This document shows, piece by piece, positions 8,350 through 39,347 of a DNA stretch of 41,862 bases. The stretch is taken from IMG/VR virus record IMGVR_UViG_3300012953_000060, positions 1-41,862 of that record; one strand, written 5' to 3'. The stretch's first letter is position 1. The number at the start of each line of letters is the position of its first letter. The notes beneath the pieces were generated by a model. That model saw only the letters and a list, made by a program, of their open reading frames with translations, made no database searches and was not told the origin of the DNA. The position numbers were made by a program, and so were the translations under genes. Source of the DNA: a virus. Its lineage: Duplodnaviria > Caudoviricetes.

Positions 8350-10326
8350 ATGGAGTTACCATCAGTAGCATCCTTAGAGTTTGAACAACTTAAGGCGTCT
8401 ATAAAAAATTATATAAAAACTAAGTCAGACTTTACTGATTTTGACTTTGAAGGGTCAAACCTTTCAATGTTGGTAGATATTCTTGCTTATAATACTTTAT
8501 ATACCAGTTATAACATTAATATGGCATCTAACGAGTTAAATCTCGATACTGCCGTTTTAAGAGATAATATCGTTTCACATGCTAAGAAATTAGGATATAA
8601 TCCTATATCTTATCAATCTTCAAAGGTTGTAGTTGATCTTACTTGTTCTAATGTAGGATCATTTAAAAGATTAGGTCTTAAATCTGGTGCAACCTTACAA
8701 ACCAGTTTGAATGGAAAGAACTATACTTATGTGTCGAAAGATCCAATTAACCTTACAGTTGTTCCAGGCGCATCTCAGGCGGTCTTTAGAGATGTCGAAT
8801 TAGTCGAAGGTACAGTATTCGATGTTAACTATATTGTCAACACCTCAAACGAACATCAAAGGTTTTTCATACCTAATAATTTTATTGATTCTAGTACCGT
8901 AAAAGTATTTGTTAAGGATGATGCTAGTGCAACTACATCAATAGAATACACAAGAAAAAATACAATTGTAGGTGTAAAACCATCAGATACAGTATTTTTT
9001 GTAGAAGAAGTTCAAGATCAAAAATATGAAGTAATATTTGGTGATGATGTAATTGGCAGAAAATTACAAAACGGTGAAGTAGTAACAATTAGATATATTG
9101 TAACAGCTGGTTCTGAACTTAATAATGTTAAAGAAAGTTCTTTACAGTTTATTGGAACTATTGAATATGTTGATGCATCTGATAATACTGGAAAACTTGC
9201 TCTAAGTGATGTTTCATTTACTCTAAATGATCAAAATTCAAGTGGTGGTTCATCATTTGAAAGTATTTCCTCTATAAAGTATAGGGCTCCAAGATACTAT
9301 GCTGCACAAGAAAGGGCAGTTACAGTCAGTGATTATGAATCTTTAATAATGCAACTTTATGGTAATACTGACTTAGTTAAAGTTGTTGGTGGTGAAACAC
9401 TGTTTCCACCTCAGTATGGTAAAGTCTTTATTACAATTAAACCTAAAGTAGGTGATGTAGTTAGTAGCACTGAAAAAGGAAATATAGTCAAGGATCTTAA
9501 AGATTATATTGTTGGATCTATTACACCAGTAATTGTAGATCCTAAGAAAATTAAAATTACTGTCAAACCAGTTATTGTTTATAATCAAGATAAGACAAGA
9601 AGAAGTGCTGCTGCATTAGCTAAATTAATTCGTGATTTACTTATAGATTATGAAAATTCTGATGCATTTAAGAATTTTACTGGAAGATTTTCTAAATCTG
9701 AGTTGCTTGCTGCAATTCAAAATTTAGATTCATCTATTTTATATTCAAATGTAAAAACTAAAGTTTGTGCAGAGATTAATCTTCAATCATCTACAACTGC
9801 GATTGATTATAATGGTTCATTCTTTACTAAAATGAAGAGTAAACTTGATGGAAAATATGCCGTAGTTTCTGGTTACTTCTGTTATCCAGGCTATGCAGAT
9901 CCAGTATTTATTGGAGTTCCTTCATATCAGGAAGGTTGTGTTTTAGATAATAACATTTATGTATTTGATAAAAATGGAAATAAAATTACTACAATAGGTA
10001 TAATTGATTTTGAAACTGGTAATTTTTCATTCTCTATTCCAGCATGTAGTGATAATCCTATAGATTTATGTGGATTACAAGATGGAACAGATTTAGAAAC
10101 AGATTCGGAGACTTATCCTGATATTATTATTGATGAGCCTGCTATTATTGATGATGATGACGATGATTCTGAACTTAATGATGATACTACAATCGGCGAA
10201 CCAGTTATCGGAGATGTCACTGGCGATCCTGATATAACTACTGTAACAACTGTAGTTGACGATCCTAATAATGTTATCACAATTGATGACTTTACTCCAG
10301 AAACAGATCCAAGTAAGTGTAACTAA
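8350..10326 (+). CDS. gp6: Baseplate wedge protein gp6
   Basis: FTDFDFEGSNLSMLVDILAYNT, VSHAKKLGY, YEVIFGDDVIG, AQERAVTVSDYE, PQYGKVFI. Confidence 0.95.
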   Translation: MELPSVASLEFEQLKASIKNYIKTKSDFTDFDFEGSNLSMLVDILAYNTLYTSYNINMASNELNLDTAVLRDNIVSHAKKLGYNPISYQSSKVVVDLTCSNVGSFKRLGLKSGATLQTSLNGKNYTYVSKDPINLTVVPGASQAVFRDVELVEGTVFDVNYIVNTSNEHQRFFIPNNFIDSSTVKVFVKDDASATTSIEYTRKNTIVGVKPSDTVFFVEEVQDQKYEVIFGDDVIGRKLQNGEVVTIRYIVTAGSELNNVKESSLQFIGTIEYVDASDNTGKLALSDVSFTLNDQNSSGGSSFESISSIKYRAPRYYAAQERAVTVSDYESLIMQLYGNTDLVKVVGGETLFPPQYGKVFITIKPKVGDVVSSTEKGNIVKDLKDYIVGSITPVIVDPKKIKITVKPVIVYNQDKTRRSAAALAKLIRDLLIDYENSDAFKNFTGRFSKSELLAAIQNLDSSILYSNVKTKVCAEINLQSSTTAIDYNGSFFTKMKSKLDGKYAVVSGYFCYPGYADPVFIGVPSYQEGCVLDNNIYVFDKNGNKITTIGIIDFETGNFSFSIPACSDNPIDLCGLQDGTDLETDSETYPDIIIDEPAIIDDDDDDSELNDDTTIGEPVIGDVTGDPDITTVTTVVDDPNNVITIDDFTPETDPSKCN

Positions 10327-13300
10327 TGAAATTCTTAAGCGATAACTCGGTAGACCTTTCACATTTAATTGACAATCAATTTCCTCAATTTGTAAGGGAA
10401 GATAATTCTACGTTCATTAAGTTTATAAAAGCTTACTATGAATCACAAGAATTAAAAAATTCTCCTTTTGATATTGCACAAAATTTAATAGAATATTATA
10501 ATATTGGTTTTTATAAGAAATCAGAGTTAGTAGAAAATACAAATTTAAATGGTAATATTGCTAATAGTGCTACTACAATTAATGTAGATAGTACTGTTGG
10601 TTTTCCAGATAAAGGATATATTCAAATTGATGATGAAATAGTCTATTATGGATCTAAGACTACAACATCATTTACAAGTTGTGTAAGAGGTACATCGGCA
10701 CTTATATTAACTAATATACCACTTTCTCAAGTTAGTCTTAAAACATCATTAGCTGAAACTCATCTTGATAATGCAGTAGTAACTAATGTTGCATATGAAT
10801 TTACATCAGAATTTTTTAGAAGAATTAGATCAGAGATTGCTGTAACAATACCAGAAAATCTTGTATCAGAATTAGATTTATCATCATTCTTCTCTAGAAT
10901 TAGAAGTTTTTATGGTGCAAAAGGAAGTTTAAATTCTCATGCAATTCTTTTCAGAATATTATTTAACGATAAAAAAATAAAATTTACAACTAAAACAAGA
11001 GGTAGTGGAGCAACTTTAAAAATACCTAACTTTGATGGTGCTATAACTGGTCTTGAGATAACTTCTGGTGGGTCTGGATACGATTCTAGAACAGATGGTA
11101 GTGGTTTGATCAATCCTCCTATAATAGAGGTATTTGGAAGTGGTACAGGTATCAATGTTGCAAATCCAACTGCTTTGCTTACAGTTAATAGTATTACTAG
11201 TGGAGTTATTGATGGAGTAACTATTACCGATGCAGGGGAAAATTATGTTGGGCCAATTACTGCGTTTGTAAGAGAAAGAGATTTTGCTGAAGAAGAATTA
11301 GTTACCTCGATTGCTGGCACTGGTAGTGGTGTTGTTGAAAGTTGGGATTATAATACTGGAGAACTTACATTAACTAATATTATTGGATTTTTTGTTAATG
11401 CTGATGAATTGCAGTCTGGTAGTGGTGAAGGAGCAAGAGTTTTTGTAAAAACTTTTGAAATTATTTCTCAAGATCCAGAAATAGAGTTTCCAAAAGATTA
11501 TCTCTTTAGACCTTCAAATTCAAACTATGGTGGTAAAAAATTAGCTAGACTAGAAATTGTTAAAAAGTTATCTAATATATCTGATCCATCATTAGATGTT
11601 ATTTCCAATAATAAAACTCTTGCTCCATCATACATTACATTTTTACAAGATCAAGATACTATATTTGGTGTATCTAATGTAACTATTGAAAGTAGTCAAG
11701 TTATAAAAATTGATGATGTTGGAAAACCAACTTATGAGGCAGATATTGAAATTAATGACGATTTTAATAAGATATATCTTCCAGCATCTACACAATTAGT
11801 TAAAGCATTTGATCCTTCAAGTGATACAATAATTACTGTTGATGATGCATCAGGATTTCCTACTACAAAAGGTCAAGTTTATATTGATGATGTAATTATT
11901 GATTATGATGAAAGAAGTGTAAATCAATTCTTAGGTTGTACTGTTGTATCTGGATCTGGTATTAAAGCAGTTTCTACTGAAGTAGTTGCTTATGGAAGAT
12001 ATAGAACTAGAAAACAATATACTAGAGGTGAGTTTATAGGATTAGATCAAGAAAGATATTATGGAGAAAATTTATATAGATCTAAAAATGCGGGAATTTC
12101 ATCTAGCACTGCTGATCCAACTCATAGTTTAGGAAGTATTAAAGTTGGTGATATTGAATGGGAATACATTGGAAGTTCTAAAGTAACCTATTTTGTTGAT
12201 GTTTTTGTAGGATTCCCAGAAATTAGTTGTACTGGTAATGAAGGTGAATTAACAATAAGAGTTGATAAGGTAAGGGATATAGCTGTTGGTCAGTCAGTTG
12301 TTGGTTCTGGTATAGGAGTTGGTGCAAAAATTCGTTCTATATCAGGAAAAGAGTTAACATTATCAATACCTAATACATCTAAGGTTACTGGTGGATGTAT
12401 ATTCTCTGTTGCACAAGCAAGATTAATGGGATTAGTTGATAATATCACAATTGAAAAATCTGGTGCTTTGTTCAGTCCACAAAAATACTTTTTTGATGAT
12501 AAAACTTATGAAGATTTTTCTGGAACAGAATACAGTGCATGGAATGTCAACAGTGATCATACATTAGATACAGATAACGATTTTGTAGGTATTTCACAAC
12601 TTTATAATTACAAATCACCAAAAGATGAACATGTTTACGTTTCATCTTCTGCAATACCAGGCTATATCTTTAGTGGATCTGTTAATGCTAAAAATAGAGT
12701 TCTTTCAAATATTTTTGATGGATATACCAATGCATTTACTTTAATTGGCCTTACAAATCCTATAGAAAAAGATTTATTTATTTTTAGAAATGCATTATTA
12801 CAAGATCCATCAACAGATTTTGATGTTGTAAATGATATTCTTACTTTTGTAGAAACTCCGAGTCAAAATGAACCTGTATATGTAAGATATTTTAATGATA
12901 CTAATAAAGTTACAAAATTAACATACACACAAACTACTCAAGGTGCTTCAAGTTCTACAATCACATTAAGTGGTTTAGGATCTTTTAATACGAGTAATGA
13001 TTATCTTTTTGTGACTGTAAATGGTGTATTACAAGTTGGAAATGCTATTAGTTACAATAACACTAGTAAAGTAGCAACTTTTACAGATAATGTAAATACA
13101 CTGACTACTACATTGACAGCTACTGGTGCTACATACGCTCCTGCTAATGGTAATTTAACTCTTACTATTCTTAATAGTAATTTGACTGTAGGAGATAAAA
13201 TCAAGATTGCTGACGGTGGAATAACGTTTACATGTGCTAAAGATGGTGATACAACTACTCATCCTTATCCAAGGTCTACTGACCCTGCTAGTGATGAATG

Positions 13301-16300
13301 GTTAGAAATTACAAGTATTAGTGGTAATGATCATGTAGTTAATGTAGGTATTTCTAGTGATACATCAACTCATACATTTGTTTCTGCTGTAACTAATTCT
13401 ATTACAAGAAGACCAGATAAAGTTGTAGCATATTGGATAAAAAATGCAAAAGTTTTAGATGCTATTACATCTTCCTCTTCTTCAACTTATACTTTACAAC
13501 AATCAAGTTCTAATTACACTGCTGCAACTACTGATACTGTATTTGTTGCTATAAATGGTGTAATACAAAAACCAACAACTTCTTATACAATATCTGGATC
13601 TACTTTAACATTTAGTGAGGTAAATTCTGGTACTGCAATTACTGTTATTGATTTAGAAGATGGTAGTGGTGGAGCAGATATTATAAATGTAAATTTAGGT
13701 AGTTTAGCTGGTATTAATCAAGATAAAGATAATTATAAATTACAAAAATTAGTTAAAAGAATACCTTTCCCTGCAAGTCTTATTAACAATAATGTTTTAA
13801 GAACATCTAAAGCACTTTCACCAACACCATCTTTAAAAGGTATAGGAATTACTGTAGATGGAATACAATTTAACAGTATTCAAGGTAATAAAGTACAATA
13901 TGGTGCTGTCAAATCTATTACTATAGGATCTGGTGGTAATTATGAGGTTCCATTAGATAAAACTACAACAGGTAGTGGTAAATTTTTAAAATCTTCATAT
14001 CCAAAAGTTATCTTAACTAAAAATGGTGGAGAGACATCAGATGTTACTATAAGTGAGTCAATATTTGATATGTCAGCTGGAATTAAATCAATCGATATTA
14101 ATAAATTTTTAGATATTACTCCTTTAACTGGATTTACAATAAAACCAAATGTTGAGGTAGTTAGTAGTACAACAGTCGCAACAGGGTTTAGAAAAGCTGT
14201 AGTAGATGTTAGTTATAAAAACGGAACTATAGATGGATTTATCGTAGTTGATTCTGGATCTGGATATACTGAAGCACCAACAATTAAAATAACTGGTGGT
14301 GGTAAACTTGAATCAGAAAATTTTTCAATTCCTTTCTTTAATACATCTACAAATGATCTAATTGTAACTATGGAAGGTTCAATTATATCTTCTAAGAGTG
14401 CTTCATCTACAATTACGTTAACAACTCCTGTAGGTAGTAAATTTAATGCTAATCCTGTAACAACTGTTGATAGTGGTTCTAATGGACTTGTAAAAGTTTT
14501 TGTTGCTAATGGTCAAATTGTAGCAACTCAGGTTCTTGATAAAGGTCAAAATTATTTTACTGAACCAACTATAAAAATTGTTGGAGTTGGTACAAATGGT
14601 GTTCTTAGAGCAAGATTAGATGGTAGTGGTGGAATTAGTGGAGTAGATATAATAAATGCTGGTAGTGGATATACAGTTCCACCTGTAATTACTGTTATAA
14701 ATGATGATACTTTAGCAGTCGCAAGTTCATTGTTAAATGAATGGACATTTAATATACCAAATAGATTTAATACAAAAATAGATGAATTTGGTGGTTATGT
14801 ATTTGATTCTAATAGTGGTGTTATACTAAAAGTTGCTTCGTTTACAACTAGTACATTAGTGTTGTCAGAAGCACCTACAGGTGTAGTTGTTGGAATGGAA
14901 GTTACTCATCCACAAATACCAATTGGAACTTTTGTAACTAAAATAGATACTTCTGGTAAAATAATATATCTTTCTAGATCTGGATTAGATCAAGTTACAA
15001 ATATATCATTAAATGGTTCACTTGTAAGTTTCTATCAAGGTGATGATAGATTTAGAGGAACACTTAAAGCACAAGAAGTTATATCAACAAATTTTGCCGA
15101 ATCTAGATTAAATTTTCAGTATTTACAATTAAAAAATACTACTAAATTTGAAACATATTATAATATTAGTAGTTCAGCACATTCTAAATTAGTAGGATTC
15201 TCTTATGATGGACATCCAATATATTGTAAGTATGGTTATTCAACTCCATTAGACAATACTTCTGCAATTGAAGAACAAACTTCATCATGGAGATTAAAAG
15301 GAGATAGATTCAATGGACCATTAGTTGCAGATTATCCATTAGGTTCATTTATAGAAGATTATGAATATGATAAAACATATGGAACATTAGATGAATTTAA
15401 TGGTAGATTCTGTGTAACTCCAGAATATCCAGATGGTGCATATTGCTACTTTATGGTAGATGTTTTCCCATTTATTATTGGGCCCAAATATTTCTCAGAT
15501 CCAGATTGTTATAATACTGGAAATAACAGATCTAATGATCAAATTCCTAAACATTTTATACGAGTAAACGACACTGCAAATCAATATTTCCCACAGGAAG
15601 AAAAGAATATAAACAAATCTATTTTGTTTACTGATTATTCTTCTGTAGGTACTGTTGATAATATGTTTATAGAATCAGCTGGTGATAATTATAAAGTTGG
15701 TGATAATATTGTTTTTGATGATGATGAAACTGGTGGATCTGGAGCAATTGCTTATGTTAGTTCTGTCGATTCGCCACCTATTTCGGATATTCAAATTGGA
15801 TCAGATGGTGTAATTGAATTTACATTTACTGGTACTCATCAGATATCTGAAAATGATGTTATAGATGTAACTTATACAAAACAAACAACAAATACTGTAA
15901 TTAATTTAGATACAATTTCTTCAGTTCCAACTCAATTAAGTGGTAAAAATTTATATAATGTAATTTTAGAATCTCATAAAATATACAGACTTGAATTTGG
16001 TACAACTAGACCATATAATTTATCTTTTGATATTTTAAATTTTAATCCATATTTTCAAAGAGATATTGACTTAAAACCAACTTATGTTGATATAGATCCT
16101 ACAAAAATTCCAAGTGTTATTTTCATACATACAAGTCAATCAATATTTGAACTTAGAGTAGAATCAGCACCTATTATTGGTAGACATCTTGTTACTGAAG
16201 TATTATCTCCAAATACATTTACTGTTAAAGACATTTCGGTCAAAACAGCTGATACTTCAGTAATTGATATTGCAATAAAATCTAATGGTGCATCAGGACC

Positions 16301-19300
16301 TATTAAAACAATAAATGTAGTAAATGGTGGTAGTGGATATAGAGTTTTGCCTGGCATAAAATCAATTACTTCTACATCTGGAAAAGGTGGTCTTTTACAA
16401 GCAACATCTACAACAATTGGTAGTATTAACTCTGTTAAATTTATTACTTATGGTGATAAGTTTTATGGATCAAAAACTGTAAGAAATTATGTAGATCTTC
16501 CTATCACAATAAAAGTAAAATCTAACTTTGAAATTGAGTCTGTTAAGGTTCTTACAAATGGTAAAAATTATCTGGTAAATCCTTACGTTAGAGTAAATGG
16601 ATTAAATGATGCTGCAACTTTACAACCATCATTTAGTACTGGTGAAGTTGTTAGTATGGATGTAGTTGATGGAGGTAGTGGATTTAGTACAGAACCAACT
16701 ATACAAGTATTCAGTCAGAATGGTGGTTCTGGTGCTACATTCTCATCTACATTAAGAAGAAAATCATTGACTGTTGGTGATACTCTTTCCATTCAAGGTA
16801 AGAGTAGTAGTGCTAAAATTCTTTCTGTTGATACTAGAGCATCTACAGTAGAATTATTAGTCTCATCAGGAACATTTTTGAAAGATGATGTATTGATTCT
16901 TTCTGATGGTAAAACTTATGGTACAATTATAGAAGTTAATACTGCAAAAGCTTATGCTAAATCAAATTCATTTGGACAAATCAAAGAAAAATTTATAGGA
17001 AGTGCTGGATTTATAAGTGATAGTTTTCAAAAACTTGGAGATAATACTTATTATCAAGATTGGTCTTATAGTCTATCAAATGATAGAAATATAGTTGATT
17101 GGAAAAGAAATATTAATGATAATACTCATCCAGCTGGATTTAAGTTTTTTGGTAAAAATAGATTACATAGCAGAAAATCAATATTAGGTAGATCACAAGA
17201 TATTGTAAGAAGTGCTGTTACTTTTAAATCTAGTATTAGTAGTTTATTAAATTCAGATTTACAAGTACCATTTGAAGGAAAATGTACAAAATCTTATATT
17301 TATTTTCATAACTTAGCATCTCCAAATCCATATAAAGTAAATGATATTGTATTTGGTTCTATAACAGGTAATTTAGGATTTGTCATAGAGGTTGGTGTTG
17401 GATATATTGTTGTTGAATATCAAAATGGTGAAATACAAATAGGTGAAAATGTAATTAACTATCTTAGAAATGTAACTCTTACAAGTACTTCCGAAACTTC
17501 AAAAGCTTTAGTTGCAGTTAATGGTATTTTACAATCACCAGGCACCTCTTACGATGTTTCTGCAAATCAATTATTACCTAAGTTTCCAATATTTCCAGGC
17601 GATGAAATCGTAGGACATTATTTAACTACTAAATTTGAAATTATAGAAGGAATTGGTATTAATAATGGTAATGAAATTAATTTAAGTCAAGGTGGTTTAG
17701 ATTATACAGCTTCCAGTAGTGATCATTTATTAGTTTCATTGGATGGTGTAATTCAAAAGAGTTCCAACATGACACTTGCAAATGGTGGTAAAGCCATTAA
17801 ATTTGCTGGTTCAAATCTTGCCGCAGATACAAAAGTACAATTTGTATTAGAACATTCTCAGTTACAACCATTAACATTTACTGGAAGTGCTGGTACTGCA
17901 TTTACACTAAATGTAACTCCTTCATCTAATTGTAAATTATTAGTATTCTTCGTTGGTGTTGATCAATCTCATTTATTAACAGATTACACTGTTAGTGGAA
18001 ATACAATTACTTTCGCATCTTCAGTAAATCCTGATGAAATATTTGGTTGGCATATTAACGAAACAGTTACTTGTGAAAAAGTTGCTCTACCAAATTTATA
18101 TTCTAATGCTGCTTCTGGAGTTGATAAGGTATGTAATCAAGCAAATAATATAACTTTAGAAATTAATTCAGATAATGTAAAACGAGCAAACGATTTCTAT
18201 GAAATACAAAAAGAACAACTAGATGGAACTATGTTCTTATCTGGTAGTCAAGTTTATGGTTTTGACACTAAATTTAAAACTTCAAATCCAGAAAATTCTA
18301 CAAGTCATGTAGAAGTTATTAATGATATTTCAGATAAAACAAATAATGTTACATCTACATTTGATTTAAAGATTAATAAGAATCAATCGTATACACCTGT
18401 GGATGGAATTAACTCATTACAAGTTACAGTCAATGGAACTATATTAGGAAAAAACAATAGAACTGTAACTCCTACAACGGCATCTTATGTTGCATCAACA
18501 GGTGTAATGACTCTTACAGTTCCTAATCATCAATTTGATACTGGTGATTTTGTTAAGATTGCTGATAATGCAATTACATTTACTTGTACAATGGATAGTA
18601 ATGCTACTAACCATTCATATCCAAGATCTACTGATCCTTTTAGTGGTGAATGGATTGCAGTTACAAAGGTTGATAATAATAACTTTAGTGTTAATGTTGG
18701 TAAATCACCTACAAAGAAATTTACTGCAACTGCAGCAAGTTATGCTACAGGATCAGGACAACTTACATTAACAATTGGTGGTCATACACTAAAAACTGGA
18801 ACCAAAGTTAAAATTGCAACCGACTCAATTAAATTTAATGTTGGTGGAAGTGTAATTACATATCCTAGTGCAGCTGGTGGTACTACATATGCATCAATTT
18901 TATCTGTAACTGGAACTACAATTGTTCTTGATTTTGGTGTACCTAATAATACTGCTACACATGTATTCTTATCTGGGTCAGCAGACTTAGTTAGAAATAG
19001 TATAACCACTGGTGGTGATTATACACATACCTTTGTTTCTGCAACTGTGGGTGGTATTAAGAGTGCTACTGGATATACAGTTAGTGGTACTCAGATTACA
19101 TTTATCAAACCTCCATTATTGAATGATAAAATTTCTATTAAGGATTTTGTATCAACCTATAAAGCAAATAGTGGTACTAAAAAAGGTGCTGAAGTAGACG
19201 AGTTTAATTCTGCAAATGGTGTTAGAAAAATATTTAATATTTCTGATGATGGTATACCAGAAACAGTATCTAATAAAACAGATTTATTTACAATTAAAAA

Positions 19301-22300
19301 TGGTATTCTTATCAAACCAGATATTCATTTAGGTGGTACTGATTCTAGAGATAATACACAACATATAAGTGCAGTCGGTAATAAAATAACATTTAATGTA
19401 GCACCAGCTGCTACTGATAAGATTGGTACAATGGTCTTCAATAGACAATTATTACCAGCAAATAAGAGAAATTGGGTTCTTGATAGAAATGAAGAATTTG
19501 ATGGTACTAGAAAATTATTTACATTACAATTAGGAAAAGATGATCATACTAAAAATTGTGTTGATCTAATTGGAGCTCCTACTGCTGAAAGTATAATAGT
19601 TGTTAAAAATGATAAGACTCTTGCTCCAACAACAGATTATACAATAGTTACACCTACAGATCCTAATGATATAAATGATGGTGCTGGATCTTACAGACTT
19701 AATTTTGTTGTTGCACCTACATCAACAGATATTATTCATGTAATGTATACAGCAAATGATGCCAACTTTGAAGATAGAACTGGTGAATTAAGTCAAACTT
19801 CTGCAAAAGTATTATCTTACACAAGTGCGTTGTCTGGAACTGGTTGGATTCCATTCTGTTATGTTGATGGTGATTACATTGATCAAACTGATGTAACTCA
19901 TGATCAAACTGCAAAAACACTTACATTTACAAATAATACAACATTAGCATCTCAAAAAGTAGAAGTTCACTTTAAGAAAGCAACTTTAAATACAACAAAT
20001 GTTTATGGTGATATTACAACTGCTGAATTGATAGTTAAACAACGTAATAATAACAATGTAGAAATTGCAACTACAAATAACACATATAATTTACTTTTAA
20101 GAAATGGTTCTTCTAATAGTACAATTACAGGGGTTAAAGTTGTTAATATTTTACTAAGAGATGGTTCTACACAACTTATAATAGGATCTGATCATTATCG
20201 TATACTTACGATGAATTTAAATAATCCTGCTATGTTTGATGCTGCAGGCGCTACTTTTGTTGCCGCAAATGGTATTGTATTAGCACCAGATGATCACTAT
20301 GATCATTCTGGATCAGGTACACCAGCAACTACTGGAATTGGTGATGGTAAAACATATGCAGCAATACAATTTAAATTCTATGGATATATGAATAAAGGTC
20401 TTGGTGCTGAATGGCATCTATCAGATCCAAGAGGAATGCCTTATCTTGCAAAAATTGATATTCTTACACACGATAAAGATGATGGTGATGGAAGACTTAG
20501 AAGAATTAATATGTTAAATCAAAAGACTGGATCTTTTGGTGGTAATAATAGAACATCATTTAGATTAGAAGTTGATGGTGTTAGATATACAAATTATGTT
20601 GCTGATGAAGACATTCTTGTATTTAAAAACGATATACCTCTAAAACCAAACACAGATTATAATTTATCTGGTGTAACTGATACTGCTACTTCTGAAAAAG
20701 GTGATATTGTATTTGCTTCTGCTCCTTCTTCAAGTGATACATTTTACATGGTTGCAATGCAAAGTAATGAACTATTGAGTATTACTATGACAAATAGTAC
20801 AACTGGTAGTTTGAGTAGACAACTTACAGCTGCAGAAAGAGAAGGTTTAATTATAATTGCTGAAAATAAATTACATTTTGGAAATGGTCAAGGATTTGTA
20901 ATGAATAGCAATAATCAAACTATTGTGTTTGATACTGCTCCTGGCTCTGGTTTACATACACCGTTTGCAATATCTACAAATACTGGTAAAATTGCTGATA
21001 AAATTAATACTCCTTTTGATGGTACAGAACCAGCATTTAATTTATTCTTAGATTCTGAAAACTTTGTACCAGTAGGACAATATGGAAATGATGCTGCTCC
21101 TGATGTCAATAGTTTATTTGTAACTAAAAATGGTTCACTTTTAATTCCAACTACAGATTATACTATTGGTGGGAATATAGGTTCTAAAATTGTATTCAAT
21201 GTTTCGCCATCAGTTGGTGATGATATTACAATATCAACTCAAGGTGTCATGAGACCTCTTGATAATATCAGTTCAACTACTGGAAAAGAACATACTCTTA
21301 AATTATCAAGTGCAGACTATTATCCAAATGCTGTAATTGGTAGACCAAGAGAATTAGAAAATCAAATTGTTGCGATCAAAAATAATAAATTATTAGATCC
21401 AATTAAAGATTACTATGTTCTTAATCAAAAAATTGTATTTACAGAAGCATTAATAAACAGTGATGTTATAAGATTATTAGATTGGTATGGTGATCATGAT
21501 GATTTTGCTGTAAGTTCTTACAATCAGCAAGTTGAAGTTAATGAAACTATTCAGTTGCCTGGCGAGTCATTAAGAAGAACAGTAACAGCGGTTCATTCTC
21601 CAACTGCAATCACTGTTAACAGTCCAACTGGAATTACAAGTCCATCTGGTATTAATGCAAGACCTGACGTAGTTGATGGTAAATTATCAGCAATTACTGT
21701 TGCAAATGGTGGAGTTGGTTATCCACAGAATACAAAATTCCGTACATATGGTCTCGGAGATTCTGCTTCTGCAAATACTATATTGGTTCCTACAAAAGGA
21801 AATAGTGTTAAAACTATTACTGGTTCTGGTACAGACACAGTTACAAATGCTGCATATGTTCCGTCTACAGGAGTTCTAACATTAACCATTCCTCATCATG
21901 GATTATCAACAGGTGATAATATTAAACTTGCAGATGAATCATTAACATTTAGATGTTCGATGGATAATTATGCTACCGAACATAAGTATCCTAGAAATAC
22001 TACAATTACACATACAGCTTCTAATGCATCTTATATACCTTCTACAGGTACATTGACTATTACAACATCAAAACCTCACAATTTACAAACAGGTGACAGA
22101 ATTAAAATTGGTGATAATTCATTAACATTTAAGTGTGCTTTAGATAGTTATCAAACTACACATACATATCCAAGATCAACTGATCCATTTAGTGATAAAT
22201 GGTTGCCTGTAAGTAATATTACAAACACAACATTTACTGTAAATGTTGGTTCATCTACATTAACCACATACACACCAACTGCTGTCGATTATGAACCTAG

Positions 22301-24659
22301 TACAGGTGACATGACACTGAATATTGGTTCACATAATATTTCAATTGGTGATCCTATTAGAATTGCTGATGGATCTCTAACATTTACTTGTACATTAGAT
22401 GGAAATATTGCTGAAAAATCTTATCCAAGAAGTAATGCTACATATCATTCAATAACAAATGCAGTTTATGATCCTACATCAGGTATTATGACTGTTACTC
22501 TTAACAATCATGGATTTATAAAAGGTGAATATGTTAAGTTCTTAGTTAATTCATTACAATTTACATGTACAACTGATGGAAATACAATTCCAAAAACTTA
22601 TCCTAGACCTACAGATCCAGCATATGATACATGGTTAAAAATTGATAATATAACCACAAATACATTTACAGTCCAAGTTCTTGATACTGTACCTTCAACA
22701 AATACAGCAGCACATACTTTTGTTGGTGCAAGTGTAAATGGTTTGGCGAAGAAAGTTGATCAAGCATATCAAACTGCTCTTTCAGTAATTAAAAGAACTA
22801 CTGATACTATTACTGTAAATGTTCTTGCTAAAATTCCATCCACAAATCTTAGTGTTCATACATTTGTTAAAGCTGCAACTGGTGCTATAAGTTCTGGTGG
22901 TGGTTATTTACATAGATTTGTTTCTGCTGCTGCAGATAGTATAAGTGAAAAGAGAGATTTTGCATCAGAACAATTCCTACAATCAACTGTAGTTGACGAA
23001 GATACACTTACAGTTAATGTTGGTAGAGTTCTTCCAAACACTCAGTATACACCAACAACAGGAACATCATATGATCCTGCTAGTGGATTATTAGTTTTAA
23101 ATCTTGGTGCTGAGTATAATGAATTGAAAGTTGGTAAGAGTGTTATTATTACCGACAATGCACTTAAATTTAAGTGTGCTATGGATAATAATGATTCTAT
23201 TAAGTCTTATCCGAGACCAGGCTTAGATAAAGCATCTGAAAGATCTCTTAAAATTACTGCAAAATCTGGTAATACTATAACCGTAGATGTTGGTGTTGCT
23301 GGTACAAACAAAACATTTACACCTAGCATGGCACATTATAATCAGACAACTGGTGATATGGTCATATTTATTGGACAACATGGATTGCGTAAAGATGCAA
23401 ATGTAGTTTTAGTTAATAATTCACTTACATTCCAGTGTGCTAAAGATAATTATGTAAGTTTACATACTTATCCTCGTGCTGGTACAGATCCATATGCAAA
23501 TGAAAAATCAATTGCAATTACAAACGTTGGATCTACTGAACATACAGTAACTTCAGCATCATATGTTTCTTCATCTGGTATTGTAACAATTAGTGTTTTA
23601 GATCCTAGTAACAAATTTGCAAATGATGATTACATCTTAGTTAACGATAATGCTCTTGTATTTACATGTAATTTAGATGGAAATGCAACACAACATCCAT
23701 ATCCTCGTGCTGGATATGATTTACCAAGTAATAAATGGTTGAAGATTTCCAGTAAAACACATAACAGTGGTACAAGTACATTTAATATTAATGTTGGATC
23801 ATCAACATATACTGGTACTCATACATTTGTAGGTGCTGCTGTTGATGCTTTACAGAGACAAAATGGTGAAATTACAATTAACGTTGGATTTGATTCTGAC
23901 GCTGGTGATCAATATGAACATAGATTTGTTTCTGCAACTACAGGTGCAGTGAAGTATACACCAAATTCAACACATACATTCCAATCTGCTGATGCAAATT
24001 CAGTTAAGATGCTTGGTGATGCTACACATAAATTTGTAAGATCAACTACAAATGGTGTTTCAGTTGAAGCAAAAACCTTTGTATCAGTTGGTGATACAGT
24101 CATTGATTATGTTGGTCATAATCTCAGTAATACAACATTAGTTCCAACTTATGAATCATATGTTGTAAGAGATGAACAGTTAAATTCTAGTGACGTTACA
24201 TTTGGTACTAAATTATCATCTGGTATTAATACATCAGTCGAAACTATTCCAGTTACAGGTACAGGAATGGCTTCCGAAAGTAATATTGGTATCACTATAA
24301 CATCTGGAAGTGGATCTAGTGCAGTTCTACAACCATTTGTTGTTGATGGAAAAATCACTAAAGTAGTTGTAGAAACTGCTGGAAGTGGATATGATTCTAA
24401 TGATATTGTATTGACTGTAACTAACGGAGGTGGGTCTGGTGCTGTACTGGAACCAGTTCTGAATGGATCGGGTGCATTTACTAGTGTGACTGTTACAAAT
24501 GAGGGTATTGGGTACGATTCTTATAAGGCTTTCATAAATAAGGAAGTTATAGAGTATACGAATCATACTACAACAAACCTAAAAGGTGTGACCAGAGGAA
24601 TAGCGGGTAGTACTGCCGCAACTGGTGCTCAAAATGATAAGGTCTATTTTGACTCGTAA
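10326..24659 (+). CDS. gp7: Giant baseplate wedge initiator gp7-like protein (4777 aa) with YHYH-like domain and many repeat modules
   Basis: N-terminal QFPQFVRED..FIKFIKAYYESQE and FYGAKGSL..LFRILF, internal YYQDWSYS...HPAGFKFFG, YHYH-like HSKLVGFSYDGHPIY...LDEFNGRFCVTPEYPDG. Lies between gp6 and gp8. Confidence 0.88.
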   Translation: MKFLSDNSVDLSHLIDNQFPQFVREDNSTFIKFIKAYYESQELKNSPFDIAQNLIEYYNIGFYKKSELVENTNLNGNIANSATTINVDSTVGFPDKGYIQIDDEIVYYGSKTTTSFTSCVRGTSALILTNIPLSQVSLKTSLAETHLDNAVVTNVAYEFTSEFFRRIRSEIAVTIPENLVSELDLSSFFSRIRSFYGAKGSLNSHAILFRILFNDKKIKFTTKTRGSGATLKIPNFDGAITGLEITSGGSGYDSRTDGSGLINPPIIEVFGSGTGINVANPTALLTVNSITSGVIDGVTITDAGENYVGPITAFVRERDFAEEELVTSIAGTGSGVVESWDYNTGELTLTNIIGFFVNADELQSGSGEGARVFVKTFEIISQDPEIEFPKDYLFRPSNSNYGGKKLARLEIVKKLSNISDPSLDVISNNKTLAPSYITFLQDQDTIFGVSNVTIESSQVIKIDDVGKPTYEADIEINDDFNKIYLPASTQLVKAFDPSSDTIITVDDASGFPTTKGQVYIDDVIIDYDERSVNQFLGCTVVSGSGIKAVSTEVVAYGRYRTRKQYTRGEFIGLDQERYYGENLYRSKNAGISSSTADPTHSLGSIKVGDIEWEYIGSSKVTYFVDVFVGFPEISCTGNEGELTIRVDKVRDIAVGQSVVGSGIGVGAKIRSISGKELTLSIPNTSKVTGGCIFSVAQARLMGLVDNITIEKSGALFSPQKYFFDDKTYEDFSGTEYSAWNVNSDHTLDTDNDFVGISQLYNYKSPKDEHVYVSSSAIPGYIFSGSVNAKNRVLSNIFDGYTNAFTLIGLTNPIEKDLFIFRNALLQDPSTDFDVVNDILTFVETPSQNEPVYVRYFNDTNKVTKLTYTQTTQGASSSTITLSGLGSFNTSNDYLFVTVNGVLQVGNAISYNNTSKVATFTDNVNTLTTTLTATGATYAPANGNLTLTILNSNLTVGDKIKIADGGITFTCAKDGDTTTHPYPRSTDPASDEWLEITSISGNDHVVNVGISSDTSTHTFVSAVTNSITRRPDKVVAYWIKNAKVLDAITSSSSSTYTLQQSSSNYTAATTDTVFVAINGVIQKPTTSYTISGSTLTFSEVNSGTAITVIDLEDGSGGADIINVNLGSLAGINQDKDNYKLQKLVKRIPFPASLINNNVLRTSKALSPTPSLKGIGITVDGIQFNSIQGNKVQYGAVKSITIGSGGNYEVPLDKTTTGSGKFLKSSYPKVILTKNGGETSDVTISESIFDMSAGIKSIDINKFLDITPLTGFTIKPNVEVVSSTTVATGFRKAVVDVSYKNGTIDGFIVVDSGSGYTEAPTIKITGGGKLESENFSIPFFNTSTNDLIVTMEGSIISSKSASSTITLTTPVGSKFNANPVTTVDSGSNGLVKVFVANGQIVATQVLDKGQNYFTEPTIKIVGVGTNGVLRARLDGSGGISGVDIINAGSGYTVPPVITVINDDTLAVASSLLNEWTFNIPNRFNTKIDEFGGYVFDSNSGVILKVASFTTSTLVLSEAPTGVVVGMEVTHPQIPIGTFVTKIDTSGKIIYLSRSGLDQVTNISLNGSLVSFYQGDDRFRGTLKAQEVISTNFAESRLNFQYLQLKNTTKFETYYNISSSAHSKLVGFSYDGHPIYCKYGYSTPLDNTSAIEEQTSSWRLKGDRFNGPLVADYPLGSFIEDYEYDKTYGTLDEFNGRFCVTPEYPDGAYCYFMVDVFPFIIGPKYFSDPDCYNTGNNRSNDQIPKHFIRVNDTANQYFPQEEKNINKSILFTDYSSVGTVDNMFIESAGDNYKVGDNIVFDDDETGGSGAIAYVSSVDSPPISDIQIGSDGVIEFTFTGTHQISENDVIDVTYTKQTTNTVINLDTISSVPTQLSGKNLYNVILESHKIYRLEFGTTRPYNLSFDILNFNPYFQRDIDLKPTYVDIDPTKIPSVIFIHTSQSIFELRVESAPIIGRHLVTEVLSPNTFTVKDISVKTADTSVIDIAIKSNGASGPIKTINVVNGGSGYRVLPGIKSITSTSGKGGLLQATSTTIGSINSVKFITYGDKFYGSKTVRNYVDLPITIKVKSNFEIESVKVLTNGKNYLVNPYVRVNGLNDAATLQPSFSTGEVVSMDVVDGGSGFSTEPTIQVFSQNGGSGATFSSTLRRKSLTVGDTLSIQGKSSSAKILSVDTRASTVELLVSSGTFLKDDVLILSDGKTYGTIIEVNTAKAYAKSNSFGQIKEKFIGSAGFISDSFQKLGDNTYYQDWSYSLSNDRNIVDWKRNINDNTHPAGFKFFGKNRLHSRKSILGRSQDIVRSAVTFKSSISSLLNSDLQVPFEGKCTKSYIYFHNLASPNPYKVNDIVFGSITGNLGFVIEVGVGYIVVEYQNGEIQIGENVINYLRNVTLTSTSETSKALVAVNGILQSPGTSYDVSANQLLPKFPIFPGDEIVGHYLTTKFEIIEGIGINNGNEINLSQGGLDYTASSSDHLLVSLDGVIQKSSNMTLANGGKAIKFAGSNLAADTKVQFVLEHSQLQPLTFTGSAGTAFTLNVTPSSNCKLLVFFVGVDQSHLLTDYTVSGNTITFASSVNPDEIFGWHINETVTCEKVALPNLYSNAASGVDKVCNQANNITLEINSDNVKRANDFYEIQKEQLDGTMFLSGSQVYGFDTKFKTSNPENSTSHVEVINDISDKTNNVTSTFDLKINKNQSYTPVDGINSLQVTVNGTILGKNNRTVTPTTASYVASTGVMTLTVPNHQFDTGDFVKIADNAITFTCTMDSNATNHSYPRSTDPFSGEWIAVTKVDNNNFSVNVGKSPTKKFTATAASYATGSGQLTLTIGGHTLKTGTKVKIATDSIKFNVGGSVITYPSAAGGTTYASILSVTGTTIVLDFGVPNNTATHVFLSGSADLVRNSITTGGDYTHTFVSATVGGIKSATGYTVSGTQITFIKPPLLNDKISIKDFVSTYKANSGTKKGAEVDEFNSANGVRKIFNISDDGIPETVSNKTDLFTIKNGILIKPDIHLGGTDSRDNTQHISAVGNKITFNVAPAATDKIGTMVFNRQLLPANKRNWVLDRNEEFDGTRKLFTLQLGKDDHTKNCVDLIGAPTAESIIVVKNDKTLAPTTDYTIVTPTDPNDINDGAGSYRLNFVVAPTSTDIIHVMYTANDANFEDRTGELSQTSAKVLSYTSALSGTGWIPFCYVDGDYIDQTDVTHDQTAKTLTFTNNTTLASQKVEVHFKKATLNTTNVYGDITTAELIVKQRNNNNVEIATTNNTYNLLLRNGSSNSTITGVKVVNILLRDGSTQLIIGSDHYRILTMNLNNPAMFDAAGATFVAANGIVLAPDDHYDHSGSGTPATTGIGDGKTYAAIQFKFYGYMNKGLGAEWHLSDPRGMPYLAKIDILTHDKDDGDGRLRRINMLNQKTGSFGGNNRTSFRLEVDGVRYTNYVADEDILVFKNDIPLKPNTDYNLSGVTDTATSEKGDIVFASAPSSSDTFYMVAMQSNELLSITMTNSTTGSLSRQLTAAEREGLIIIAENKLHFGNGQGFVMNSNNQTIVFDTAPGSGLHTPFAISTNTGKIADKINTPFDGTEPAFNLFLDSENFVPVGQYGNDAAPDVNSLFVTKNGSLLIPTTDYTIGGNIGSKIVFNVSPSVGDDITISTQGVMRPLDNISSTTGKEHTLKLSSADYYPNAVIGRPRELENQIVAIKNNKLLDPIKDYYVLNQKIVFTEALINSDVIRLLDWYGDHDDFAVSSYNQQVEVNETIQLPGESLRRTVTAVHSPTAITVNSPTGITSPSGINARPDVVDGKLSAITVANGGVGYPQNTKFRTYGLGDSASANTILVPTKGNSVKTITGSGTDTVTNAAYVPSTGVLTLTIPHHGLSTGDNIKLADESLTFRCSMDNYATEHKYPRNTTITHTASNASYIPSTGTLTITTSKPHNLQTGDRIKIGDNSLTFKCALDSYQTTHTYPRSTDPFSDKWLPVSNITNTTFTVNVGSSTLTTYTPTAVDYEPSTGDMTLNIGSHNISIGDPIRIADGSLTFTCTLDGNIAEKSYPRSNATYHSITNAVYDPTSGIMTVTLNNHGFIKGEYVKFLVNSLQFTCTTDGNTIPKTYPRPTDPAYDTWLKIDNITTNTFTVQVLDTVPSTNTAAHTFVGASVNGLAKKVDQAYQTALSVIKRTTDTITVNVLAKIPSTNLSVHTFVKAATGAISSGGGYLHRFVSAAADSISEKRDFASEQFLQSTVVDEDTLTVNVGRVLPNTQYTPTTGTSYDPASGLLVLNLGAEYNELKVGKSVIITDNALKFKCAMDNNDSIKSYPRPGLDKASERSLKITAKSGNTITVDVGVAGTNKTFTPSMAHYNQTTGDMVIFIGQHGLRKDANVVLVNNSLTFQCAKDNYVSLHTYPRAGTDPYANEKSIAITNVGSTEHTVTSASYVSSSGIVTISVLDPSNKFANDDYILVNDNALVFTCNLDGNATQHPYPRAGYDLPSNKWLKISSKTHNSGTSTFNINVGSSTYTGTHTFVGAAVDALQRQNGEITINVGFDSDAGDQYEHRFVSATTGAVKYTPNSTHTFQSADANSVKMLGDATHKFVRSTTNGVSVEAKTFVSVGDTVIDYVGHNLSNTTLVPTYESYVVRDEQLNSSDVTFGTKLSSGINTSVETIPVTGTGMASESNIGITITSGSGSSAVLQPFVVDGKITKVVVETAGSGYDSNDIVLTVTNGGGSGAVLEPVLNGSGAFTSVTVTNEGIGYDSYKAFINKEVIEYTNHTTTNLKGVTRGIAGSTAATGAQNDKVYFDS
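21840..24065 (+). repeat. Seven nested copies of a ~100-aa 'FxC..YPR..HxF' domain in gp7 (three further copies at ~13110-13410 and ~18456-19067)
   Basis: Seven YPR motifs (21987, 22167, 22422, 22599, 23208, 23469, 23700) and seven closing HxF motifs (22713, 22857, 22911, 23820, 23919, 23973, 24027), all in frame. Confidence 0.85.
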
Positions 24660-26310: not shown

Positions 26311-29300
26311 ATGCAAAAGACCAATCTACAACTGGCGCCATACTTTGATGATTTTGATAGTTCCAAAAACTATCAAAAGATTCTATTTAAACCTGGCTAT
26401 CCAGTGCAGGCGAGAGAACTTACTCAACTGCAAACACAGTTACAGAACCAAATAGAGAAATTTGGAAATCATACATTTAAAGATGGTTCTGTAGTAATAC
26501 CAGGCCAGATTGGTTACGATCTGCAATATGATGCTGTTTTAGTTCAGAATTTAATTGGTGGTGTAGAAGTAGAAGCAACAAGAACAAGTTTAGTAGGTAA
26601 AACTTTAAAAGGATCAACTACTGGTGTAGAGGCAGAAGTTGTAAATACAATATCAGTTACAACAAGTGAAAAAAATGCGATTACATTATATGTAAAATAT
26701 ACAAAGAGTGGTTCTAGTACAGCTGGTATCCAATCAACTAAATTTGGTAATAATGAGACTTTAATTGATACATCAACTAATCTTAATGTTGCTCAAACAT
26801 ATCTTTTAAATGCTACTGAATATACTGGAAGTATAGCATACATTACAAATGGCATCTACTATATTCGTGGATTTTTTGTAGAAGTTATAGATCAAAATAT
26901 TATACTTAATCAATATAGTAACAAACCAACATATAAGATTGGTCTAACAGTTACAGAAGAAAAAATAACAAGTGATGAAGATAGTACATTATTCGATAAT
27001 GCAAATGGATATTCTAATTTTGCTGCTCCAGGCGCTGATAGATTAAAAATTACTGCATCATTATCAAAAGAGTTGACTAGTTTTTCTGATAATGGTAATT
27101 TTATAGAATTATTAAGATTAAAAGATGGTATTTTAGAAAGAATTGTTGAGACTAGTTTATACAGTGAATTAGAAAAAAATCTTGCTAGAAGAACATATGA
27201 TGAATCTGGTGATTATACAGTCAGAGATTTTACTGTTAAGGTAAAAGAAGCTCTTGATAATGGAGAGAATGGTGGTATCTATAATCCTAATGAAGTTCTT
27301 GCAGATGGTAGAAGTATTTTAGCAAGAGATCCATTAGAAACAGATCCAACAAATTCTTTTAATGGTAATAATTATTATGCTTTAGAAGTATCTTCTGGAA
27401 AAGCATATGTAAGAGGTTTTGAGATTGATAATGTTGCTAAAAAATATGTATTAGCTGAAAAAACAAGAGTAACATCTGCTTCAAATAATAAAACTACAAA
27501 TACAAGTTTTGGATCATATTTTACAATATCTTCTGCCGTACAAACTGTTACTGCTGGTCAGACTCTTTCTTTAAGAAATAGTAGTAATGCTGTTATTGGT
27601 AATGCTCGTGCTGTAGGTGTAGTTCCTGCTAGTACTGGTCATTTATTATATGTTGAGGAAGCATTTACATTTACAGATGTTGTAGTTACAGGTGATGCTA
27701 CTGCATTACAATCTGGTGATTTTATATTTTCTTCTAGAGGATCTAGAGGTGTAGTTGTATCTACAACTCTTTCTAGTGGTAATACAACACTTAGATTACG
27801 TCAAGTTGTTGGTAGATTTGTAAATAATGATGTTATAAACAATAGTAGAGATTCAATTACGTTTACAATTTCTAGTCTTACTGATTTTAAATTTACAGAT
27901 GTTAATAATATAATCAATGGTCTTGGATATGTTGCAACTGTAACTTCAAATACTGGTCTTAAAACAAAAGGTAAAAATAGTTTTATTAAAATATCAGATT
28001 TACCAGTAGCAACAATTAGTGATTATTCATACACAAAATTAGCAAGAGTAACTCTTACTGTTCAAAGTGGAGCAGTATCAATTACTGCACCAAATAATTT
28101 TACTCCTTTAACAACTGGATACTATATCACTTCAGCTACTGGAGATCATACAGCAACTGCAACTCTTACTGGAAATACTTTAGTATTATCATCTATTAGT
28201 GGAAGTCCTACTAATGGAACTAGTGTAACAATTTGGTATAAATTAAGAGTTACTAATGTTTCTGTTAGAACTAAGAAAAATAAAACATTCCAATACTTAT
28301 CAGTCACAAAGAAAAAATCATCAACTGATGTAGTCTATGGTAATAGGTATGATGATAAAGAAATTAATTTAAGATTTCCAGACGTTTATAAAATACATGC
28401 TATTCATGAGGCAGCTGTAAATGGTGTAACTGATACAAATATGTTTGATCGTTTAATTATAAATGATTCAAGTGAGGTTGAAACTGGTGATATTATTCAA
28501 AGTGGTTCTTTAAGAGCAAAAGTTATATTTAAGAATGGTGTAAATCTTCATGTCAAATATTTACAGAATCAAAAATTTACACAAGGAACAAATTTAACTA
28601 CACAAATTACTATTGTCAATAATCCTACTTTAGTCGGAAGATTTTTAACTGAAGTTACACATGGTAACTATATCGATATTACAGATAATTATGCTTTAGT
28701 TAAAAATGATGTAGAAGATAATTATAGAATTTCTAAATTATCTAGATTAGGTAATAGATCAACACCATCACAAAAAATTACTATTGTATTTGATTATTTT
28801 GAACATGGAAATACTACAAATGATTTTTATGCTACAAGTTCATTTAATACTGATGATGATGGAGATATAGAATATACAAATATTCCATATGCATATGATG
28901 GAACTCCTTATACTGATATCTTAGATTTCAGAGGAACCTATACACCAACAACTGCTTCTGGTAGTGGTACTGTAACTGCCCCATATGTTACTAGTAATGG
29001 AAAATCAGCATTTGATATTTACGAACAAACCAAGAGTGCTGCTATAACAGCATATCCAGATGAGTTTGCTACATATGATTTAAGTTACTATACTGCAAGA
29101 ATTGATAGATTATATCTTAATAAAGAAGGTAAGTTTGTAATATCACAAGGATCACCAGCAATCAATCCAGTAATACCTGAGTCTGTTTCAGATTCTTTAT
29201 TAATCAATACTATTTCTATACCAGCATATCTTAGAGATGTAAATCAAATTTCTATACAGAAAGAAGATACTAGAAGATATACTATGAAAGATATTGGTGC

Positions 29301-38283: not shown

Positions 38284-39347
38284 TGTTAGGAAAACATTTT
38301 TATCACGAAATTCTTAGAAAGACTATTATTGGTTTTGGAACTATATTTAATAATATAGAATTACAAAGAACTGATAATGCTGGGAATGTCGTACAAACAA
38401 CTAAAGTTCCTTTGAACTATGGCCCAAGAGAAAAGTTTCTTGCAAGAATAGAGGCGGAACCTTCATTGGATGGTCGTGCTGAAACACAAATTACATTACC
38501 TAGAATTTCATTTGAAATGAAAGGTATTAATTATGATCCATCTAGAAAGTTAGGCCCCGTACAAATACAAAGATCACAAAAAACTAGTGATACAGAAAAG
38601 AGTTACTCTACATACAGTCCTGTACCATATAACTGTGAATTTGAATTAAACATTTTAAGTAAAAATAACGAAGACTCTGTACAAATATTAGAACAGATTT
38701 TACCTTATTTTCAACCGATGTTTAATATTACAATTAATTTAATAACATCAATTAGTGAAAAGAAAGATATACCTATAATTTTAAACAATGTTGGAATCTA
38801 CGATGACTATGAATCAGATATGAGTACAAGAAGAACCTTGATTCATACTCTTAATTTTACAGCAAAGACATATATGTACGGACCTGTATCTACTGCTGAA
38901 ATGATTAGGAAGGTCAATGTTGATATTAGTGCTGCAATGACAACTGGATCTAGACACGTTAGATACAGTACAGAACCAGCTGCTAAAGTTGATCAGAACA
39001 GAGATGGTACATCAATTCCACCTACACAGTTTAATGTTTCTAGTAATACTATTACATTATCAAGTCATGGATTTGTTACTCAGGATAAGGTTACATACAA
39101 TCAAGACACATCTGGTACACCTGTTGGTGGATTAACTGATAAGAATAATTACTATATAATTAAAATTGACAATGATAACTTTAGAGTTGCAAAATCAAAA
39201 TCTTATGCTAGACAAGGATTTGCAATTGACATTACTGCACAACCTACAGGTAATGATCATAAGTTCTCTGTAATCAATACATTAGATGATGCATTTATGG
39301 ATGCAGGCGATGACTTTGGATTCAATGAAAGCTGGACTAATTTCTAA
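38283..39347 (+). CDS. gp15: Tail sheath stabilizer/completion protein gp15
   Basis: FYHEILRKTIIGFGTIFNNI, VPLNYGPREKF, LPRISFE, QILEQILPYFQP, DDFGF. Confidence 0.95.
   Translation: MLGKHFYHEILRKTIIGFGTIFNNIELQRTDNAGNVVQTTKVPLNYGPREKFLARIEAEPSLDGRAETQITLPRISFEMKGINYDPSRKLGPVQIQRSQKTSDTEKSYSTYSPVPYNCEFELNILSKNNEDSVQILEQILPYFQPMFNITINLITSISEKKDIPIILNNVGIYDDYESDMSTRRTLIHTLNFTAKTYMYGPVSTAEMIRKVNVDISAAMTTGSRHVRYSTEPAAKVDQNRDGTSIPPTQFNVSSNTITLSSHGFVTQDKVTYNQDTSGTPVGGLTDKNNYYIIKIDNDNFRVAKSKSYARQGFAIDITAQPTGNDHKFSVINTLDDAFMDAGDDFGFNESWTNF

Follow-up and report, generated by a model that had tools for sequence, protein, structure and literature searches.

The window considered here, a virus record of 41,862 bases taken at its full length (completeness estimate 23%), contains one very large gene whose product carries several copies of a 103-residue module in its C-terminal part. 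The question raised by this locus is whether these copies follow one another in tandem or are inserted into each other, and what a protein of such a design would be used for. The gene and a conserved segment within it are located as follows:

10326..24659, + strand: giant open reading frame containing the tree, 4777 aa; putative baseplate wedge protein at the gp7 position, with gp6 and gp8 as neighbours
16911..17255, + strand: conserved wedge segment; matches positions 680-727 of 765 in phrog_17744 and 800-857 of 903 in phrog_38653

On one side of the gene lies gp6 (PF21379, PF21387) and on the other gp8 (PF09215), and further downstream are the genes for a DUF4815 protein, the neck, gp15 and the terminase. 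The N-terminus of the 4777-aa protein is matched by phrog_2885, a baseplate wedge subunit (E 5e-207), and residues 2196-2310 match baseplate wedge families; for this segment the match to PF23786 is weak (positions 228-278 of 284, E 0.039). Short baseplate wedge proteins have this segment at their C-terminal end, and the tree sits in the extension past it. Gene order together with the wedge-family matches at the N-terminus and at residues 2196-2310 thus suggests the label gp7. T4 gp7 occupies the same interval between gp6 and gp8, and baseplate wedge families match both ends of the first 2300 residues here, but T4 gp7 is far shorter, about 1030 aa versus 4777 aa. In single-sequence searches no solved structure, T4 gp7 included, matched the sequence of the 4777-aa protein. 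A YHYH domain lies inside the protein (15159-15479; PF14240, E 5e-29) and is common among its gp7-like relatives.

A tblastn search with the tree region gave matches in 315 of 50,697 phage records, all of them titled Synechococcus, Cyanophage, Prochlorococcus or Marine, and from these names we infer that the source is a T4-like marine cyanophage. The gene at the gp7 position is represented in the virion proteome of a different cyanophage, S-CREM2, by 91 peptides (PMC10665884, table 3). T4 gp7 is stated to be absent from cyanophages of this type, and VrlC is described as its substitute (PMC7029224). This is in contrast to the present phage, in which a 2047-aa DUF4815 protein, likely VrlC-like, follows gp8 (26311-32454) and coexists with the gene at the gp7 position.

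Seven copies of the module, 4 deep, occupy residues 3836-4582 of the 4777-aa protein, in the bracket order a[b[c[d]c]b]a[e[f[g]f]e]a. The pieces, and two further sites with copies in the same protein, are:

21831..22004, + strand: root copy a, opening piece covering the strands as far as YPR; insert at site 3
22005..22262, + strand: copy b, opening piece; insert at site 5, after VNVG
22263..22439, + strand: copy c, opening piece; insert at site 3
22440..22754, + strand: copy d, intact and uninterrupted, tip of arm 1
22755..22898, + strand: copy c, closing piece; spliced HMM match
22899..22952, + strand: copy b, closing strand; end of barrel b at model residue 377-379
22953..23039, + strand: root copy a, middle piece; second interruption, at site 5; pLDDT 76, 61, 53
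23040..23312, + strand: copy e, opening piece; insert at site 5
23313..23537, + strand: copy f, opening piece; insert at site 4; model range 499-711
23538..23864, + strand: copy g, intact, tip of arm 2; FCCH barrel over model residues 570-679
23865..23963, + strand: copy f, closing piece (fifth strand and closing strand); model range 499-711
23964..24017, + strand: copy e, closing strand; a strand in the model, pLDDT 93
24018..24071, + strand: root copy a, closing strand of the H-x-F-x-R type; pLDDT 62, 58, not folded in the model
18459..19067, + strand: second nest, two copies; diverged inner copy 18714-19013 at site 5
13107..13409, + strand: single intact module copy, found alone

This bracket string had been proposed in a preliminary description of the DNA, and a parser blind to nesting recovered it exactly. 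The seven YPR openers agree with the frame-3 translation (21987, 22167, 22422, 22599, 23208, 23469, 23700). The seven H-x-F closers are found at 22713, 22857, 22911, 23820, 23919, 23973 and 24027 (aa 4130, 4178, 4196, 4499, 4532, 4550 and 4568), but the count of literal motifs needs a correction: an eighth, HGF at aa 4062, is part of the opening of copy d and not a closer. Insertion at three different loops holds for the window protein, whereas the family uses five. The nested pair at 18459-19067 was missing from that description. The inner copy of this second nest (18714-19013) is without Cys and YPR. Close relatives have three copies at the position of the second nest, and two nested copies plus a single one at the position of 13107-13409.

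The inner copies were excised in silico and the remainders scored with an HMM of 105 positions built from 3 intact copies. All five interrupted copies then span the profile end to end, from position 1 or 2-4 to 102-104, and none of the spliced outer fragments fails to match it. The spliced scores, with the best single piece in brackets, are 81.6 bits (62.7) for a, 106.0 (93.3) for b, 90.8 (58.7) for c, 79.7 (66.0) for e and 56.5 (46.0) for f. It should be noted that these scores measure completeness; they cannot assign the short closers to copies and were left out of the pairing.

The order of pieces was then analysed in 259 sequences (240 proteins, 18 locus ORFs and the protein of the window). 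A profile of 103 positions from the intact copies was re-estimated on fragments with no assumption about pairing, and the proteins were cut by a local parser which has no stack. The points at which a copy pauses or resumes cluster at five loops, named 2, b, 3, 4 and 5. In a first pass, with no rules for permuted or missed pieces, the latest pause was resumed in 587 of 893 informative cases and the oldest in 361 of 893; the shuffled fraction was 0.41, and 22 of 202 parses were perfect. Five proteins were inspected and contained, at site b, copies in circular permutation that start with the closing strand, as well as weak pieces which had been missed, and the parsing rules were refined after this inspection. 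The refined test leaves out 109 of 404 clusters because they touch a sequence end and covers 142 multi-copy architectures in 229 clusters. Last-in-first-out closure is seen in 577 of 650 informative resumptions (expected 291), counts which are not independent trials since the architectures share descent. The 1000 shuffles give a fraction of 0.416 +/- 0.023 with a maximum of 0.485, and a first-in-first-out rule accounts for only 107 of 335. Perfect balance is found in 35 of the 142 architectures, against 6 under an oldest-first rule, and 1 is purely tandem. Over all resumptions 786 of 1113 are matched and 254 have no waiting partner.

Since the rules had been refined on five proteins, a run on proteins outside the training set serves as an untuned check. 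Here 139 proteins gave 50 architectures after 81 of 187 end-touching clusters had been dropped, and last-in-first-out closure was seen in 33 of 36 cases (expected 16.6; shuffles 0.557 +/- 0.08, maximum 0.79), with 3 of 23 oldest-first and 10 of the 50 architectures perfect. The comparison of nesting topology among relatives, which the preliminary description had proposed, thus gives dominance of last-in-first-out closure in both sets, and as far as sequences can tell the bracket order is widespread.

P0004 contains the largest balanced tree, with 25 copies and a depth of 10. Perfectly parsed trees have gaps of at most 32 residues and no other domain grafted on. Two or three loops are interrupted in 64 of 291 distinct inner copies, and the opening of an outer barrel can be up to 2,600 residues away from its last strand. 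In one case (L213:184-3498) a single root seemingly has children at four loops. Permuted copies at the loop after the Cys, of which 31 were counted, are exemplified by P0004 aa 1863-2231 and L017:3304-5859. A diverged subfamily of the module without YPR, nested and with a different N-terminus, is found in P0298, P0363, P0364 and P0376; these four contain 10-24 Cys-type and 10-27 His-type motifs each, and one of them is nested at site b.

The closers come in runs which look alike, and piece order alone therefore cannot pair them with openers. To this end mean-field covariation was learned on 674 intact copies only (effective number 416). Under the resulting couplings, 66 of 78 trees score better with their short closers paired as nesting demands than with random pairs, and 64 of 78 better than with the closer order reversed; counted by architecture, nested beats random in 23 of 24. 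The register is 45-88, 44-89, 43-90 and 42-91, such that Cys43 faces His90, and the pairs 5-100, 4-98 and 2-101 run from one end of the module to the other. A pairing test that used similar intact copies as anchors is weak (72 of 281 against a chance value of 61), with 36 of 102 against 19 at 60% identity and 9 of 23 against 3.3 in a third count. In all 45 non-redundant parents of the e-f-g cassette the closer is of the H-x-F-x-R type, which makes up 68 of 1049 distinct closers and to which the last closer of the window belongs; the opening piece of these parents resembles that of a best in only 18 of the 45. Relatives differing by one copy are also informative. L023:428-1369 carries an additional copy within the counterpart of the copy left intact in the second nest of the window, and the closer that matches stands in second place, which is the order that nesting predicts; L212:253-1215 is without exactly the middle child found in L210:2092-3351. 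Covariation, order tests, these gains or losses of single copies and the structural model described below speak against local pairing of the H-x-F closers, in line with the distant partners assigned to them from the start.

An AlphaFold model was made of residues 3834-4581 with 59 natural, unspliced alignment rows, of which only 5 cover the first 400 residues; 8 rows of arm-1 type are aligned on arm 2. The mean pLDDT is 83 and the pTM 0.49. Arm 2 is near 90, including its two orphan closers, and arm 1 near 80, while root a ranges from 53 to 76 (first piece 66-73, fifth strand 53-61, closer 58-62 and without a strand). The topology was read from the ranges of structure alignments. Copy b, completed by the third closer, is spanned at model residues 58-379 by solved barrels in many rows, among them 9mc4_A (Z 8.0 over 82 residues, rmsd 2.7); copy f is spanned at residues 499-711 in one row, by 5vj7_B (Z 5.4, 77 residues, rmsd 3.8). 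In these two predicted barrels the pieces are up to 320 residues apart. The uninterrupted tips match as well, barrel g an FCCH domain (Z 8.0, residues 570-679) and barrel d an endosialidase barrel (Z 7.8, residues 205-313). For copy c there are weak rows only, 145-357 (Z 2.8) and 146-333 (Z 3.9), for copy e a single poor one, and in the fold searches of the model no row spans root a. Foldseek with the whole 748-residue model returned non-specific beta-protein matches only. An independently predicted arm, in a BFVD model from phage ACG-2014d, can be superposed at 3.1 A across 326 columns.

In the structural check of nested topology b and f are predicted as discontinuous single barrels, but root a is unassembled. 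A relative, L144:737-1996, whose root is split into four pieces by three child copies, was modelled from 10 rows at pLDDT 88 and pTM 0.77, with all root pieces at pLDDT 82-94; its fold-search rows cover the three children, and none spans the root. With root a not assembled, branching in the window rests on the sequence together with this confidently predicted three-armed relative, and closure of root a is putative. We hold the nested fold of the copies with high confidence and consider the branched root likely. The module itself is predicted to be a six-strand barrel.

The best match for a single barrel is that of the endosialidases (K1F endoNF, phi92), with Z 7.8-8.1 and rmsd 1.9-2.3 A over 75-83 residues at 18-23% identity; for chain 4hiz_C the values are Z 8.1, 75 residues and rmsd 1.9. 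The barrel of the endosialidase tailspike binds polysialic acid. It also belongs to a host-facing tail protein but is present once per chain. PF12195 was not matched by the 4777-aa protein, and two relatives reach only E 0.03-0.05. Next come the FCCH domain of human UBA1 E1 (Z 8.0) and a phage tail chain of the FCCWL1 type, 9jlf_E (Z 7.5), and a viral FCCH cluster comes closest among the named Atlas clusters (score 0.93). The Pfam family E1_FCCH (PF16190, cut-off 29.5 bits) is not reached, with 18 bits over positions 2-24 of 70. Known FCCH domains are single, and the module here adds a Cys-bearing hairpin ending in YPR and the His closing strand. After these two the other fold matches are phage tail chains and flavin-reductase barrels. 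Superposition on solved barrels of the FCCH and endosialidase type as a group gives Z 7.5-8.1 and rmsd 1.9-2.8 A over 75-83 residues. With Z middling at about 8, and with flavin reductases and E1 sharing the barrel, the fold shows no function. A match to an iota-carbonic anhydrase, 7c5x (E 3.9e-5, profile positions 11-54 only), found no support in the fold searches and was rejected.

The principle of recursive and branched self-insertion is already known from RNA polymerase. Si3 of the cyanobacterial beta' subunit (RpoC2) is described as eight SBHM/HABAS hybrid-motif domains in a six-level bifurcating recursion (PMC13114784), and four of the eight are assembled from distant segments in the crystal structure (PMC10895346). 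As in the phage trees, a small beta domain has been inserted into its own copies at level after level, with bifurcating nodes. Si3 lies in the trigger loop of the polymerase, whereas the host of the tree is a phage structural protein, and the hybrid motif differs from the FCCH/endosialidase-like six-strand barrel which the fold searches indicate here; no hybrid-motif chain was among the 50 matches listed in four such searches. In contrast to Si3, the phage trees come in 142 architectures with up to 25 copies, 10 deep, five graft sites and permuted copies, and the window's own tree, with 7 copies and a depth of 4, does not reach the size of Si3; the depth counts for the phage trees and Si3 may start from a different zero. 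The suspicion that the architecture was new stands in so far as literal-phrase searches of open-access text turned up no publication that describes such nesting for a virion protein of a phage, and the main text of PMC13114784 contains neither 'phage' nor 'virus'. It falls for the type of architecture, which is known from Si3 (PMC13114784, PMC11515920).

In balanced trees the Cys is present in 464 of 464 copies and the His in 460 of 460, a conservation partly built into the selection of copies. Other candidate metal ligands are less conserved (His52 68%, Asp46 76%). Since Cys and His are near-invariant and are kept in the relatives without YPR, a metal clasp is plausible, and it is possible that Cys43 and His90 form such a clasp joining distant pieces.

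The family is small, with 749 representatives among 1.84 billion. The N-terminus of the window protein is shared by 56 of 120 long matches, and the remainder are 7 other groups and 8 singletons. In 61 gp7-like proteins 888 of 900 copies lie past the conserved wedge segment (phmmer). In phage Syn1 the same cassette is found in a different protein of 3380 aa, located between a virulence-associated (VrlC-like) gene and the neck genes, a region called the host recognition cluster (PMC7029224). Whole cassettes recur within single proteins (L008, P0028, P0035). A four-copy cassette can be present two or three times in one protein, as in L008 (L008:7721-8983 and 10058-11317) and P0035. Duplication of a parent into its own loop was considered and rejected: of 188 cases, 13 have the parent as the most similar copy, where chance gives 20, and identity between parent and child exceeds that of other pairs in 5 of 21 trees only. 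No DNA repeat was found at the graft junctions. The children being no closer to their parents, and the cassettes recurring, the grafts likely came from other copies, genes or phages.

The reading we favour, with a probability of roughly 0.55, is that copies of the module, inserted into one another's loops, build a root barrel and two three-barrel arms which together present a many-headed surface for contact with host sugars. The two ends of the module would lie side by side, and a copy or a whole sub-tree could then be grafted into any of the five loops with the host barrel left intact; the covariation between the module ends would explain both the near-linkerless grafting and the permuted copies. 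The seven copies in the C-terminal part would form the root barrel and its two arms, with the chain running out along each arm and then back. The tips of the arms would fold first, and each outer barrel only once its last strand arrives. That strand would dock on the Cys-bearing strand with the His opposite the Cys, giving a candidate metal site to clasp the far pieces. Root and arms likely project from the baseplate as a stiff surface for the first contact with host sugars. Display and binding are favoured by the position of the copies past the wedge segment, the Syn1 cassette in a host-recognition region, the endosialidase match and the outward orientation of FCCH barrels on phage tail tubes (PMC13576161), and on these grounds we lean slightly towards a host-binding role; outward display, sugar binding and metal are putative. 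A bolder formulation is tentative and rather unlikely as a whole: that cyanophage trees are natural dendrimers, made of a five-loop barrel with a Cys-His metal clasp joining its early and last strands and recombined, copy by copy, in permuted form or as complete sub-trees, into branched receptor-binding arrays of up to 10 barrels in depth, that their self-nesting is the deepest reported in any protein, and that their shape is a heritable tuning of host attachment.

The alternative that survives best accepts the nested fold and takes the tree as structural or shielding decoration without receptor binding, be it a strut, a spacer, armour against grazers and proteases or scaffolding for further virion proteins. 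Tips and stems consist of one and the same barrel, perfect trees carry no foreign domain, core conserved residues are kept equally in tips and inner nodes, and FCCH barrels serve as decorations of phage tail tubes (PMC13576161), all of which would suit this role. It fits less well with the 10-22 copies in trees of widely varying shape and size among 56 gp7-like proteins, and with the presence of trees in proteins of the variable host-recognition region, and we regard it as unlikely, if well worth keeping in mind.

In a second alternative the barrel is merely tolerant of insertion and gathers copies by recombination, with little selection on shape. The 142 architectures in 229 clusters agree with such neutral accretion, and so do close relatives, which differ by entire copies. 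This is at variance with the e-f-g cassette, whose identity stays near 50% across 49 non-redundant loci, and with the remodelling of host copies according to graft site, Trp65 being present in 0 of 71 site-4 host copies but in 102 of 172 tips; the alternative is improbable.

A third possibility is that the barrels, or the six wedge copies, swap strands with one another, in which case the bracket tree would record the history and not the exact shape. The recursively inserted HABAS domains of Si3 do exchange elements (PMC11515920), the closers are short and alike, and root a is unassembled in the single-chain model. Such models nevertheless close b, f and the four-piece root of the relative with good confidence, and the couplings favour the nested partner, which makes extensive swapping quite improbable. 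Ordinary tandem repeats with degenerate pieces, local pairing of closers and brackets by chance are a reading that could appeal to the 107 of 142 architectures which parse imperfectly and to the few tandem clusters (the one in the refined test and P0248 in the unseen set), but it is largely refuted by order tests far above all 1000 shuffles, the discontinuous barrels of the model, the covariation and the unseen proteins.

If the barrels of the nested, branched tree do bind host sugars, tree shape becomes a testable variable of host range. Repeat proteins usually extend in a linear row; this virion protein has grown into a tree, and its relatives build more than 100 tree shapes from the one module. 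The trees are a natural test set for the folding of discontinuous domains and a candidate scaffold, with five known graft sites, for the design of branched single-chain proteins. They also partly explain the gp7-like proteins of 4,500-7,900 residues in marine cyanophages, where standard domain annotation is uninformative.

Some minor observations concern the rest of the window. The neck protein (611 aa) and gp15 (354 aa), encoded at 36448-39347, have C-terminal extensions which match repeats of giant structural proteins. A 1329-aa ORF at 2636-6625 matches a single PHROG family, which is unannotated, along 166 residues, and nothing in Pfam. A second type of repeat, of about 70 residues and with the pattern NGV-x-Q-x-P ... 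Y-T-x-S-G ... I-T-F, recurs in the 4777-aa protein at about 12700-13660, 17500-18100 and 19050-21500.
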